Shown here: piece after piece, positions 1-34,773 of the stretch | How positions within the stretch are numbered: the first letter of the stretch is position 1 | How the letters are laid out: each line of letters starts with the position of its first letter | Source of the DNA: an uncultured Candidatus Saccharibacteria bacterium | Lineage (GTDB): Bacteria; Patescibacteriota; Saccharimonadia; Saccharimonadales; Saccharimonadaceae | Length of the DNA stretch: 47,025 nucleotides | Assembly: GCA_963546555.1 (NCBI GenBank) | Contig: CAUUND010000001.1 | Span: 1 to 47,025, forward strand | Direction of reading: 5' to 3' | Program-made: the position numbers and the translations under genes | Notes under the pieces: model-generated | Told to the model about the DNA's origin: nothing | What the model saw: only the letters and a program-made list of their open reading frames with translations | Databases searched by the model: none

Positions 1-523
1 CCTTTTGGTTAATGGTGAAGATAGCATTGGTCTCGACGCCGGGGTCGTTCCAGTCTAGCTGAGGTAAATAGCGATGTGACGAAATGACTCGGTCGATGAT
101 GTCGCCGATATTTACTTCGCTCAGTACTTGTCGCCAGACGGCGTCAGCGGTCATGAAGATGCGGTGTACCGCCTGGTCGGCTGTAGTGATGGCTTGGTGG
201 GCGTTAGTGCTAGTTTGGCTAGCAAAGATAGCACTAAAGAGCCCCGTGCTGGGAAAACTGTCCACCCTGCCCTCCAGTGCTTCGACTACCTCCAGGATGG
301 AGATCTGTCCGACGGGGCGAGCCAGGGCGAATCCACCACTATTCCCCGGCACTGATTTGACGATACCGGCTACGACCAGCTTGCGCAGCAACTTCTGGCT
401 ATAAGTCATAGACGTCGGCAGGCGTCGCTGTAGAGTGCGAGATGAGACGGGAATAGCCTTAGCCTGAGTGGCGAGGATTGCCATCAGGCAGACCCCCTGC
501 TCAAAGCTCTTAGTTAGCTTCAT
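1..523 (-). CDS. Rrf2-family transcriptional regulator (3' end runs off the window)
   Basis: Not in the ORF track. Manual translation from the ATG at 523 gives MKLTKSFEQGVCLMAILATQAKAIPVSSRTLQRRLPTSMTYSQKLLRKLVVAGIVKSVPGNSGGFALARPVGQISILEVVEALEG, which carries the Rrf2 wHTH signature. GGGAGG SD upstream; frame stays open to position 1. Confidence 0.9.
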   Translation of the reverse strand, partial: MKLTKSFEQGVCLMAILATQAKAIPVSSRTLQRRLPTSMTYSQKLLRKLVVAGIVKSVPGNSGGFALARPVGQISILEVVEALEGRVDSFPSTGLFSAIFASQTSTNAHQAITTADQAVHRIFMTADAVWRQVLSEVNIGDIIDRVISSHRYLPQLDWNDPGVETNAIFTINQK

Positions 524-639: not shown

Positions 640-1971
640 CCTACATTAACACCCTAACTGCAACAATTTGCCTTAAAGACTTCAAGCGGGGTTAAGCCGC
701 CTAGACGTTTTCTGGGCCCGTTGTTTAATAGATTTTCTAGGTCTAATATACATTGAGTCGTAAGCTTTTTGAAGTCAGTGCCTTTAGGATAAAAATCTCT
801 AATTAGCCCATTAAAGTTTTCATTCCTGCCACGCTGACCGGATTTATACGGGTCAGCAAAGTAAATGTCTACATCCAGTGTTTTCTCAGTGGCACGCCAG
901 CTACTAAACTCAACCCCATTGTCATAAGTAATGGTGGCAACATTGCTTTTACCAAAGACTCTTTCAATATCCACCTTGGTTTGCTTGGTAATATCGGCGG
1001 CATTGTAGCCAATAACTAAACTAATAGAGCCTAACCCGGATTTACGCTCGGTATAGGTCAATAGTCTATCCTTGGTATCTAATCCAAAGACGGTATCTCC
1101 CTCCAGGTCGGTATAACTTTCCAGATCATCTATACTCGCCGGTCGGTCATGAATAGAATGCTTGCCCCTATTGGTATTGTTGTATGGTAATTTGGCAGTA
1201 TTCTTAAACGGCTTACCACGTCTACGGAGTAAACCAACCGCTTTCTTGCGCTCATTGCCATTAAGGCCATAGATGTAACGGTAGATGGCCATGTGGGATA
1301 TGGGGCGAAGCCCCATGTCTCCCGTCCAACCATCGTTATCTTTAAGGGTTTGGTCTGCTAGTAAGGCATCTATTCGCAGGGAGATTTGTTCCGGTGACCA
1401 TCGTAATTTGAGTTTAGCCTTAATATATGCCAGTGTCCGGGCATATATTGGTTCAGTCAGTTTCTTGCCGGTTCTGCAGACGCCCGCATGGCGTTCAGCA
1501 GCATATTCTCGGGCTAGCTTGGCATTGTAGCTATATAGCTTGTTATGTAGCCTCTGACGCCTTTTAACGCCCTCTTTAGCCTTACGAATGGTACTAACCA
1601 TAACTTGGCCGCGGTACTTGCGGCCATCTAGGTTAGTAATGGCCGGTACATTGACACGCCGTCTATTTTTATCTCGTTTTCGACCAGGCAGTCTTTTTAT
1701 CTGTTCCTCAATAAAGCTATTAACCTCACGAGAGATAGTACTGGTTGAGCGTCCAAGTGATTTGGCAATAGCAGTGTATGATTCACCATTCTTTAACCTA
1801 TTCTCGATAACTATACGTTCATCGTAGCAAAGTTGTATATACTTGTTGTTAGACACGTTTCTAACGTCCTTTCCGGTTAATTGACTTTCCAAAAATCCAT
1901 TAAACCACGGGGCTAAAATTGAAACGTGTCTTTATTAAGCTCATCCTTTGCAGTTAAGGTGTTAATTTAGA
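640..1971 (-). mobile_element. IS30-family insertion sequence
   Basis: Imperfect terminal IRs: left cCTACATTAACACCCTAACTGCAA (640-663) and reverse complement of the right end tCTAAATTAACACCTTAACTGCAA (1948-1971). GAG direct repeats at 637-639 and 1972-1974. Low GC. Confidence 0.9.
654..1892 (-). CDS. IS30-family DDE transposase
   Basis: N-terminal HTH (IAKSLGRSTSTISREV), WSPEQIS, DDE motifs EGDTV, TYDNGVEF and GRNENFNGLIRDFYPKG, C-terminal LNNGPRKRLGGLTPLE. Confidence 0.95.
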   Translation of the reverse strand: MESQLTGKDVRNVSNNKYIQLCYDERIVIENRLKNGESYTAIAKSLGRSTSTISREVNSFIEEQIKRLPGRKRDKNRRRVNVPAITNLDGRKYRGQVMVSTIRKAKEGVKRRQRLHNKLYSYNAKLAREYAAERHAGVCRTGKKLTEPIYARTLAYIKAKLKLRWSPEQISLRIDALLADQTLKDNDGWTGDMGLRPISHMAIYRYIYGLNGNERKKAVGLLRRRGKPFKNTAKLPYNNTNRGKHSIHDRPASIDDLESYTDLEGDTVFGLDTKDRLLTYTERKSGLGSISLVIGYNAADITKQTKVDIERVFGKSNVATITYDNGVEFSSWRATEKTLDVDIYFADPYKSGQRGRNENFNGLIRDFYPKGTDFKKLTTQCILDLENLLNNGPRKRLGGLTPLEVFKANCCS

Positions 1972-1978
1972 GAGCTAC

Positions 1979-2007
1979 TTGACAAAATAAGGATAGAGTG
2001 TTATAAA
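1979..2007 (+). promoter_or_regulatory. Sigma70 promoter TTGACA-N17-TATAAA with extended -10 TG
   Basis: TTGACA at 1979-1984, TG at 1999-2000, TATAAA at 2002-2007. The -10 box lies inside an AGTGTT..AACACT inverted repeat. Confidence 0.75.
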
Positions 2008-2068
2008 TGAACACTATCAGGTTGCATGCGAGACAAGCTCGTATGACCTGCGTCCCTTGGGAGGAAAT

Positions 2069-2434
2069 ATGTCTTATGAGGAAGACTGCGTATCGCTTAG
2101 GACATTGCATATGGGCTACGAGCTCCAGGGGGCTCGTATCCAGATGGAGCGGGCGCTTGAAAGTGCCCGCTCGGTAGTGGGCGCATGCCTCGAGGACTCG
2201 CTCGAGCGGGCGCTCGAGTGTATTGAGAATGCAGAGCAGCATTTGTATGCTCTGCAGAGAGAGTTTCGGAGTAGTGGTGACAACCACCATTGCTCCGAAA
2301 CGACTGAGACGACTAACTCCTCCTTAAAAGAGGAGGAGCTAGTCCTTGCAACCCCTGTTCAGGGGGTGCAAGTGGATGGTCGCCTGATCTTAGGCGACCC
2401 CAAGCTCTTGAGAGCTGACACTCTCAAGAGCTAG
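2069..2434 (+). CDS. Orphan 121-aa hypothetical protein embedded in the hairpin array
   Basis: GGGAGGA SD at 2059-2065, ATG at 2069, TAG at 2432-2434. Repeated ERALE motif; no recognised family. Confidence 0.45.
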   Translation: MSYEEDCVSLRTLHMGYELQGARIQMERALESARSVVGACLEDSLERALECIENAEQHLYALQREFRSSGDNHHCSETTETTNSSLKEEELVLATPVQGVQVDGRLILGDPKLLRADTLKS

Positions 2435-2505
2435 CACTGCCCTGGCGGGCTAGCGCATGTTCTCTGTGCGCCGGCTCGCCGGCATCCTATCCACCCTCCA
2501 CCCTC

Positions 2506-2542
2506 ATCCCCCTACTTACGAGTAGGGGGATTTTCCTTTTTT
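2506..2542 (+). terminator. Rho-independent terminator
   Basis: ATCCCCCTACT-TACG-AGTAGGGGGAT stem followed by TTTCCTTTTTT. Confidence 0.8.
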
Positions 2543-2580: not shown

Positions 2581-2655
2581 TGGGATGTCGCCAAGTGGTA
2601 AGGCATCAGGTTTTGGTCCTGACATTCGGGGGTTCGAATCCCTCCATCCCAACCA
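2581..2655 (+). tRNA. tRNA-Gln(TTG) with encoded CCA
   Basis: Acceptor TGGGATG/CATCCCA, D-arm GCCAAGTGGTAAGGC, anticodon arm TCAGG-TT-TTG-GT-CCTGA, T-arm GGTTCGAATCC, CCA at 2653-2655. TATAAT at 2561-2566. Confidence 0.96.
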
Positions 2656-33825: not shown

Positions 33826-34335
33826 CTAGTGATCGCCGTTGAATACATACTCTCTTGAGTGCTTATTGTAAAAGCCCCTTGCAAGTACTTGCGTTCTTTG
33901 CCAATTATATTTTTTAATAATACTAGCAAATTGACAAACTTTATAGTCTGCAACGGTTATAAGTGGCTTACTGGTATCCAGCCAGCAAAAGCACTTCCCG
34001 AGCAGCTCCGTACCGACACCACTTCCCTGATATCCTCTTTTAACAAAGAGAGTACTAATCTTGCGCTCTTTATCGTCTTTCTTCAGAAATGATGTCGCAA
34101 CTATCTTGCCGCCAATGTAGCACGATATAATATTGCGCTTACCCAGAAAGATACCCGGCACGTATTTACAGTAAAAATGCTTCAAGTGATTAGGATAGTC
34201 TTTAGAGATCCAGTCCGTTATCCAATAGCTTTCTTCAATCAGCTTCGACAGAGCCTCTCCATCTTCTACTAATTTAGACGCCTCTACGTAGGTCCTTTCG
34301 GAGGACGTGTGGCTCAAGCTCAAATACATAGACAT
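33826..34335 (-). CDS. GNAT-family N-acetyltransferase
   Basis: KISTLFVKRGYQGSGVGTELL acetyl-CoA motif A; DYP..FYCKYVPG..GKR. Start position uncertain because it overlaps the upstream ASCH gene. Confidence 0.85.
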   Translation of the reverse strand: MSMYLSLSHTSSERTYVEASKLVEDGEALSKLIEESYWITDWISKDYPNHLKHFYCKYVPGIFLGKRNIISCYIGGKIVATSFLKKDDKERKISTLFVKRGYQGSGVGTELLGKCFCWLDTSKPLITVADYKVCQFASIIKKYNWQRTQVLARGFYNKHSREYVFNGDH

Positions 34336-34636
34336 TTAGCTTCTCCTTATCCTTATGGTAAATACCTTGAAGAATCTTTAGCGCTTCGACAGAGGTTACA
34401 CCAGGCAAAATCATATCTACATCCTCGGATTCAAGCATAGACTCAAAACTCTTATAGATGCTTATGCGTTTAACCAAGAATGTATTTGGGGTATCATAAT
34501 GCTCAAAGCGTATAAGATCGCCCTTCTCGACTTTTCTAACCCATGAATTACCTACTCGTATCTCTAAGTTCTTTACACCACTCTTGAGCTGATAAAAGTA
34601 TTCTTTTTTTATTCTCCAAGTATGTATTGTTGGCAT
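34274..34636 (-). CDS. ASCH domain protein
   Basis: IKKEYFYQLKSGVKNLEIRV..GDLIRF..YKSFESML..IYHKDKE..VYVFEL; AAGGAG SD. Confidence 0.88.
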   Translation of the reverse strand: MPTIHTWRIKKEYFYQLKSGVKNLEIRVGNSWVRKVEKGDLIRFEHYDTPNTFLVKRISIYKSFESMLESEDVDMILPGVTSVEALKILQGIYHKDKEKLNVYVFELEPHVLRKDLRRGV

Positions 34637-34773
34637 TCTACTAGCTCCTTTCAAAGAACGCAGGTCATGTGAGCTGGTCTCGCATACAACCTGATGGTGT
34701 CCACTGTAACACACCCCTCGCATTTGTCAAGCTTTCCACAACTACGTCGGGGGCTCAGGTGTATAATCAGATC

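Follow-up and report, generated by a model that had tools for sequence, protein, structure and literature searches.

A hairpin-packed messenger RNA for a small conserved protein belongs to a leader-sharing gene class in one genus of Saccharibacteria

We analyzed a 47,025-nt stretch of DNA from an uncultured Candidatus Saccharibacteria bacterium (contig CAUUND010000001.1 of assembly GCA_963546555.1; 606 kb, 75% complete, hereafter this genome); all coordinates are positions in this window unless another contig or locus is named. Nucleotides 1979-2542 of the forward strand are a self-contained transcription unit, the messenger RNA (mRNA) for a 121-residue protein, P0001, that is found in one genus only. 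The open reading frame (ORF) and the hairpins that run through it are both conserved, and the hairpins are under selection as sense RNA. The gene is one of 6-13 small genes per genome with a common promoter-leader module, and it shares its promoter, leader and 3' tail with other members of this class, a level of organization overlooked by the first-pass annotation, which had been made from the letters of the window. The packing of this gene set with hairpins probably makes its messages long-lived or tightly gated.

Results

The transcript folds far beyond shuffled sequences

The sense strand of 2010-2542 has a minimum free energy (MFE) of -281.3 kcal/mol, compared with -193.5±7.1 kcal/mol for 100 dinucleotide shuffles, none of which folded as well (z = -12.4). 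The ORF alone reaches -200.0 kcal/mol, with z = -11.8 relative to 60 dinucleotide shuffles. When 60 shuffles of synonymous codons, which preserve both the protein and its codon set, serve as the reference, z is -9.3, and the ORF is 64 kcal/mol more stable than these synonymous versions of itself. By comparison, three coding stretches of the window taken as controls scored z = -0.4 to -2.2. Shuffles preserving dinucleotides and codons had been proposed in the first-pass annotation as a check on the hairpins, and the fold lies far beyond both, for the whole unit and for the ORF, respectively. Among 5955 windows of 200 nt scanned across this genome, those within 2101-2500 rank second, sixth and seventh, and the other top-ranked windows are small genes on contigs C5, C10 and C56. 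The earlier impression that nothing comparable occurs elsewhere is thus correct for the window and incorrect for the genome, where these small genes share the top ranks.

Stems span approximately 70% of the transcript nucleotides, the longest being 17 bp, and around 10 hairpins are located within the ORF. From leader to terminator, the consensus fold comprises approximately 13-14 local hairpins, slightly more than the original count of about 11. Every inverted repeat quoted in support of that count is located at the coordinates given for it. The hairpins also differ from one another as claimed and do not form a repeat array: none of the body hairpins recurs in this genome, where the 5' leader alone is repeated and the hairpin body is single-copy, a pattern unlike that of repetitive extragenic palindromes (REPs) or miniature inverted-repeat transposable elements (MITEs). 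The features of the unit are as follows (UTR, untranslated region; I and helix numbers identify inverted repeats and helices).

1979-2007 (+), promoter, read from the sequence: -35 TTGACA at 1979-1984, 17-nt spacer, -10 TATAAA at 2002-2007
2018-2050 (+), 5' leader hairpin, CAGGUUGCAUG...CAUGACCUG with a 2-nt UG bulge, beginning approximately 4 nt past the predicted transcription start
2059-2071 (+), Shine-Dalgarno (SD) sequence and start codon: GGGAGG at 2059-2064 (GGAGG at 2060-2064) and ATG at 2069-2071
2069-2434 (+), ORF P0001, 121 codons: ATG at 2069, TAG at 2432-2434
2114-2141 (+), hairpin GGCUACGAGCUCC / GGGGCUCGUAUCC, I5, helix 6: 12 pairs, 98.5% of cells paired
2147-2172 (+), hairpin GAGCGGGCGCUU / AAGUGCCCGCUC, I6, helix 7
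2177-2218 (+), two short hairpins at CUCGAG repeats, I2 and I11, helices 9 and 10
2230-2256 (+), hairpin UGCAGAGCA / UGCUCUGCA, I9, helix 11
2263-2301 (+), hairpin with 17-nt arms, I1, helices 12 and 13: both sides changed in 5 pairs
2311-2344 (+), hairpin around CUCCUCCU / AGGAGGAG, I3, helix 14
2345-2372 (+), hairpin CUUGCAACCCCUG / CAGGGGGUGCAAG, from the MFE fold, helix 15
2376-2399 (+), hairpin GGUCGCCU / AGGCGACC, I12, helix 16
2403-2432 (+), hairpin AGCUCUUGAGAG / CUCUCAAGAGCU, I4, helix 17: both sides changed in 3 pairs, finishing at the stop codon
2441-2482 (+), 3' UTR hairpin, helix 18: 16 pairs, part of the 3' tail module common to other cassettes
2491-2505 (+), C-rich single-stranded motif CCACCCUCCACCCUC (also given as CCACCCTCCACCCTC), including CCUCC at 2495-2499, an anti-SD mimic
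2506-2541 (+), intrinsic terminator, helix 19: 11-bp stem (2506-2531), UACG loop, T run
2581-2655 (+), tRNA-Gln(ttg), the syntenic neighbor downstream, outside the transcript

Compensatory changes favor selection on the sense RNA

The covariation set comprised 17 distinct sequences and 157 consensus pairs, in which 98.0% of cells are paired and 27 pairs have changed on both sides. Shuffles gave 15.8±2.5 such pairs, with none of 500 reaching 27, and slid controls gave 1-7; because the sequences are related, these counts and the G·U and A·C counts below serve as support and not as probabilities. A covariation test on homologues had been suggested for the hairpins, and here compensatory changes appear in 27/157 pairs, more than in shuffles. 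At column pair 262/272 of helix 11, for example, 9 sequences have G-C and 8 have A-U, and the leader hairpin, with 13 pairs, has compensatory changes in 6 across 15 copies. A further comparison comes from a pair of paralogous genes of 72 and 74 amino acids (aa), which at 65% DNA identity retain 50 pairs in matching columns, including 5 in which both sides differ.

The forward strand has a consensus energy of -223 kcal/mol and the reverse strand one of -180 kcal/mol; with G·U pairs forbidden, both come to -136 kcal/mol. Counting pairs predicted on either strand, the alignment contains 312 G·U versus 138 A·C cells, and the window's own sequence contains 19 versus 8. The original remark that imperfections are mostly G-U pairs on the forward strand is partly borne out by this last count.

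The ORF encodes a protein under purifying selection

The reading frame stays open at 113-121 aa in 17/20 related loci (15 distinct sequences), while an internal deletion shortens it to 79 aa in the other three. Indels within the ORF among relatives measure 12, 12 and 3 nt and are in frame, and variable columns at codon positions 1, 2 and 3 number 38, 37 and 62 of 121. The median ratio of nonsynonymous to synonymous substitution (dN/dS) is 0.32 over 99 pairs, versus 1.77 and 1.10 in the shifted frames, so that purifying selection is confined to the annotated frame. The 121-codon ORF that had been read through the hairpins is therefore a real gene, with approximately 10 hairpins inside it.

The protein database holds 129 relatives of P0001 at 68-98% identity, none of them named. 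Paralogues of 129-162 aa encoded beside rpsJ share with P0001 a C-terminal motif, KEEEL..P[VI].GV...GRL.LGD.K, as well as its 3' tail, and these genes are likewise hairpin-rich. The description of P0001 as an orphan consequently stands insofar as no Pfam or PHROG family and no distant relatives were found, and fails with respect to the 129 relatives and the paralogues sharing a C-terminal domain. In an AlphaFold model (mean predicted local distance difference test [pLDDT] score 68.8), residues 4-68 form a helical hairpin and residues 91-115 a small beta domain, with a disordered linker between them; the beta domain is modeled with confidence (pLDDT 88-92). Searches of Pfam and PHROGs with P0001 and eight or nine sister proteins matched none of the small cassette proteins, and the ESM Atlas gave no usable match for P0001. 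A profile search against 1.84 billion representatives returned 17 matches, all of them family members, paralogues, fragments or noise from coiled coils, and a Foldseek search of the model against the PDB returned only generic antiparallel coiled coils, the best at an expectation value (E) of 0.23. A type I toxin was considered and dropped, the protein being hydrophilic.

Promoter, leader and 3' tail define a gene class restricted to the genus

The full unit, at 78-93% identity, was matched in 30 of 61 genomes including this one, all in the same genus: 29 of its 36 other members carry it, while among 24 genomes of as many other families there was no match. The promoter and leader (1979-2071) recur before other small ORFs. 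A covariance model of the leader, R1, detects 8 copies in this genome. Across the genus it detects 6-13 copies in 34/41 genomes and none in the remaining 7. A further 120 genomes of the order, two of which represent other genera of this family, gave no copy. The 3' tail, comprising the hairpin, the CCACCCUCC motif and the terminator, is present in at least three cassette families.

Hairpin packing extends to several other members of this class. Two further leader gene units, at L025:8600-9048 and L025:4060-4560, fold with z = -13.5 and z = -12.4, respectively. Against synonymous shuffles, four of six other leader-gene ORFs score z -3.3 to -8.3 and the remaining two (87 and 105 aa) score -1.7 and -3.0. 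As a side observation, an island on contig C5 (C5:9400-17547; L025 900-9048) contains at least five small genes (72-130 aa) that are packed with hairpins, four of which follow an R1 leader; they are interleaved with a gene for an NYN-domain (RNase-like) protein and one for an HATPase_c_4 regulator-like protein. The island also includes ORFs of 465 and 424 aa, which from an unchecked reading of their translations we take to be tRNA-synthetase-like and ATPase-like. A second promoter-leader copy in the window, at 34638-34730 (-), precedes an ORF with an ASCH/DUF3850 domain at 34274-34636 (-).

Four of the six bases of the -35 TTGACA are invariant among 15 aligned leader copies, in which a GTGTTA..AACAC frame is kept together with most of the -35. 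The promoter went unlisted by a program promoter scan because the scan rule demands T as the final -10 base. Judging solely from the position of the -10, transcription would start near 2014. A DNA inverted repeat, GTGTT (1998-2002) / AACAC (2010-2014), encloses the -10 and may serve as an operator. Downstream, GGAGG and ATG are invariant in 18 homologues; the terminator loop is UUCG in 4/18 sequences and UACG in most relatives; and the element lies approximately 35 nt upstream of tRNA-Gln in 14/14 related loci checked. The TTGACA-17-TATAAA promoter, the good SD sequence and the terminator ahead of tRNA-Gln were thus all correctly read in the first-pass annotation. The CCACCCUC unit of the 3' UTR (window 2491-2505; alignment columns 515-545) varies with the genome from one copy to four (G031).

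No known RNA family matched the unit. In an Rfam 15 search of 1800-2800 at E ≤ 1, only the tRNA passes its threshold, the next best hits (E = 0.16-0.2) falling far under their gathering scores, and at the gathering threshold five sister loci gave no match other than tRNA. Such a search had been advised at the outset, and it matched no described RNA family; the proposal of an undescribed large structured RNA accordingly survives in that respect and fails in another, as the RNA is an mRNA and not purely non-coding. The accompanying proposal of an unusually stabilized or translationally locked mRNA fits better, given an ORF under purifying selection and hairpins that covary on the sense strand. 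A 3' hammerhead ribozyme was dropped as there was no Rfam hammerhead match. A retron or other reverse-transcriptase template RNA was likewise dropped, with no reverse transcriptase among the listed neighboring ORFs, although no search aimed at one was made, as were integron attC cassettes, since each unit has its own promoter and terminator and carries hairpins inside its ORF (an integrase was not searched for).

Discussion

A candidate nuclease-resistant message

On balance, we lean toward reading the transcript as an armored, nuclease-hardened mRNA, possibly one locked at its SD sequence. In such a message, the 5'-terminal hairpin would stop RNase J decay from the 5' end, the continuous hairpins would offer RNase Y few single-stranded sites to cut, and the 3' hairpins would stop 3' exonucleases. 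RNase III requires about two helical turns, and every stem here falls below that length, which may allow the message to escape this enzyme as well. RNase J, RNase Y and RNase III are present in 5/5 genomes of the genus. Rho was not found in any of the five, and for this reason avoidance of Rho-dependent termination was dropped as a role for the hairpins.

The 3' CCUCC may also pair with the SD sequence, in which case the message would be stored translationally closed with its ends paired. The SD sequence is predicted to be paired in 18/18 homologues (P unpaired ≤ 0.05), and its pairing with CCUCC is predicted at P > 0.8 in 13/18, for a 5-bp helix with no control run. Sister cassettes show SD-to-3'-tail pairing at predicted P of 0.5-0.9. 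This predicted pairing hints at a translationally closed form. Taken to its furthest extent, the argument describes a dedicated regulon of superfolded small-protein mRNAs, each armored from its 5' hairpin through to the terminator and with its SD sequence clamped by the anti-SD mimic of the tail, which would be produced ahead of need, stored untranslated for long periods and opened by a signal such as host contact; we offer this picture tentatively and consider it doubtful.

Several observations weigh against an armored mRNA. The G·U bias is a moderate effect, approximately 2.3:1, and is counted over related sequences. The antisense strand of 2010-2542 is likewise strongly folded (z = -10.6), and template switching can in principle mimic compensatory change. 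In 5/18 homologues, the SD:CCUCC probability is only 0.19-0.44, and the pairing (GGAGG:CCUCC, helix 4) is without covariation support because all five of its pairs are invariant in the 17 distinct sequences. Stable hairpins in an ORF should slow ribosomes, and strong expression is therefore not guaranteed. Among the 120 clusters listed, a set of variants of approximately 79-124 aa is truncated or frameshifted past about residue 79, amounting to 62-68% or 82% of the query. The downstream hairpins are kept in these variants despite the lost frame, so that in the 3' third the RNA may be of greater importance than the protein. The ASCH-like gene with the second leader copy is not hairpin-rich (z = -0.5), so that leader and hairpin packing are separable. 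P0001 has no function recognizable by Pfam, PHROG, ESM Atlas, profile or Foldseek searches. Finally, a search of sequencing runs listed no RNA run for the stretch, and the best DNA run held 0.29 of the sampled words.

Alternative explanations

The hairpins could instead serve chiefly to throttle or gate translation, whether as an ORF-wide thermometer, through a need for a helicase, or as an SD-locked store opened by a signal. Such a role is consistent with the predicted pairing of the SD sequence in every homologue, mostly to the 3' CCUCC, with the similar pairing in other cassettes, and with the roughly 10 stable stems that stand in the path of the ribosome. The predicted ensemble, however, leaves roughly half of the start codon and of the -15 to +12 window unpaired, the lock of 5 bp shows no variation and lacks a control, and gating alone leaves the hairpin at the extreme 5' end and those of the 3' UTR unexplained. 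We therefore consider gating unlikely as the chief purpose of the fold.

If the RNA were the main product, as a structured or dual-function RNA such as a scaffold, a protein sponge or a small-RNA precursor, the ORF would be secondary or decaying. The retention of hairpins past the frameshift or deletion in 79-aa variants, the frequency of truncated forms, the strong covariation and the occurrence of the same 5' and 3' modules around unrelated ORFs all point in this direction. They are opposed by a dN/dS of 0.32 in the annotated frame only, by the excess of third-position variation and the in-frame indels, by the invariance of the SD sequence and the ATG, and by paralogues that keep the C-terminal motif as protein. 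The architecture, too, counts against it, consisting of simple hairpins only, with no multi-stem junctions and no long-range tertiary signals, and there is no Rfam match. We consider an RNA of this kind quite improbable as the main product.

A third explanation places the palindromes at the level of DNA, as hairpins created and homogenized by replication template switching between imperfect inverted repeats or as cruciforms or single-stranded DNA hairpins with a function of their own, the RNA fold being a by-product. Template switching reportedly generates and preserves hairpins with apparent compensatory changes (10.1101/2021.04.15.439925). Both strands of the unit fold far beyond shuffles, as this explanation would have it, and most stems are perfect Watson-Crick palindromes. 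Yet G·U pairing adds 87 kcal/mol to the forward consensus and 45 kcal/mol to the reverse, and the cell count is 312 for G·U versus 138 for A·C. Moreover, the packing is limited to promoter-to-terminator units and recurs at matching positions in paralogues of 65% identity, and a mutational bias would not account for its limitation to a few small genes. Together these points leave a DNA-level origin with little probability. The remaining proposal, that the unit was captured from a single-stranded replicon, of RNA or DNA, or from another mobile element, could draw on an IS30-like transposase immediately upstream and on the mosaic distribution of cassettes among genomes, but it is contradicted by the fixed position beside tRNA-Gln in 14/14 loci, by the lack of any phage, plasmid or PHROG match, and by the absence or remnant state of the insertion sequence in relatives, and can be set aside as extremely improbable.

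Neighboring genes and repeated elements

The IS30-like transposase ORF (412 aa, HTH_38) occupies 654-1892 (-), between the element and a gene for an Rrf2-family regulator. In relatives, the insertion sequence is absent or a remnant, while the element stays; in one of them (G014, locus L031), a 65-codon N-terminal remnant of the transposase remains at 2135-2332 (-), and an extra leader-driven cassette of 49 codons with the same 3' tail lies upstream at 1780-2110 (+). Phage and plasmid blastn searches gave no match for the element, and a PHROG search gave none for P0001. Alleles are mosaic, an example being G029, whose leader is of the G031 type and whose body is of the deleted type seen in G018; such mosaics suggest that cassettes or strains recombine frequently.

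The Rrf2-family regulator gene, at 2-523 (-), encodes a protein with a single cysteine and in relatives is divergent to the cassette array. Its orthologues at ≥95% identity are found only in leader-positive genomes, a co-occurrence that is confounded because the seven leader-negative genomes also look like more distant species. The inverted repeat around the -10 together with the divergent Rrf2 gene suggests a common repressor.

A separate repeated element of approximately 120 nt is present in five copies in this genome (C5:16432, C12:5990, C19:10694, C45:4234 and C61:2897) as well as at L026 169-372 and L027 1307-1498, and is often near cassettes. It has a long terminal inverted repeat, GTACGAGTAGTACAGGTGG ... 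CCACACTGTACTACTCGTAC, with outer ends TGTAATTTCCC / GGGAAATTACA. It represents either a MITE-like sequence or a structured RNA; an Rfam search gave no match for it in L026 or L027.

Comparison with known systems and significance

To our knowledge, bacterial coding sequences are usually deemed weakly structured, and known stabilizers act at the ends of mRNAs. Genome-scale ordered RNA structure is a feature of positive-strand RNA viruses, and MS2-type phages have highly folded coding RNA; the unit described here resembles both in being coding RNA with pervasive selected secondary structure, and departs from them in being a chromosomal gene that has a promoter and terminator of its own, lacks a replicase and matches no phage. 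ROOL and GOLLD are large structured non-coding RNAs that often lie beside tRNA genes, and the unit shares with them its length of approximately 500 nt, its high degree of structure and its adjoining tRNA gene. In contrast to these RNAs, it is a string of simple hairpins, has no Rfam match to E = 1 and contains a selected ORF. Dense palindromes also recall REPs and MITEs, from which the unit is distinguished by body hairpins that are all different, single in the genome and located within an ORF.

Published accounts offer further parallels, the first two of them precedents for an armored message. 5' stem-loop stabilizers are described for E. coli ompA and papA, and for the B. subtilis aprE leader and ermC (PMC3997798). 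Here, too, a stable hairpin sits a few nucleotides into the predicted transcript, with a strong SD sequence after it, and the organism has the RNase J and RNase Y decay machinery. Unlike them, a single covarying leader serves 6-13 genes per genome, and the putative protection spans the ORF and the 3' UTR. The B. subtilis hbs mRNA has a protective 14-bp pairing between its 5' and 3' UTRs that modulates RNase Y cleavage (PMC5737220). It too is a small-protein mRNA with a structured leader and ends that pair, as is predicted here; the end helix predicted for our unit is only the 5-bp SD:CCUCC pairing, which would mask the ribosome-binding site, and the hbs ORF, unlike that of P0001, is not known to be hairpin-packed. 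The nearest parallel to the ORF itself is artificial, in designed superfolder mRNAs whose ORFs are recoded for maximal pairing and resistance to hydrolysis (PMC7457604, PMC8940940). In both, synonymous and amino-acid freedom is used to place most nucleotides in stems, whereas the present sequence is natural, conserved and covarying, and is built of many short separate hairpins instead of long helices. No description of such a hairpin-packed leader-gene class was found in the literature searched, whose coverage leaves out subscription journals.

In a chromosomal gene and its sister genes, covarying hairpins extend over the whole message while the protein remains under selection, which illustrates the reach of dual constraint within one sequence. 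If the hairpins prolong the life of the RNA or gate its translation, they would represent a natural design rule for stable mRNA, namely many stems, all of them ≤17 bp, and would provide a handle on gene regulation in the hard-to-study candidate phyla radiation (CPR) bacteria. Under either role, the promoter, possible operator and leader would constitute a regulon whose trigger could inform the episymbiotic life cycle. Should the messages in fact be a stored, superfolded regulon, kept in this genus and perhaps in CPR bacteria more widely, bacteria would have a counterpart to stored maternal mRNAs, and engineered mRNAs of extreme stability would have a natural precedent.

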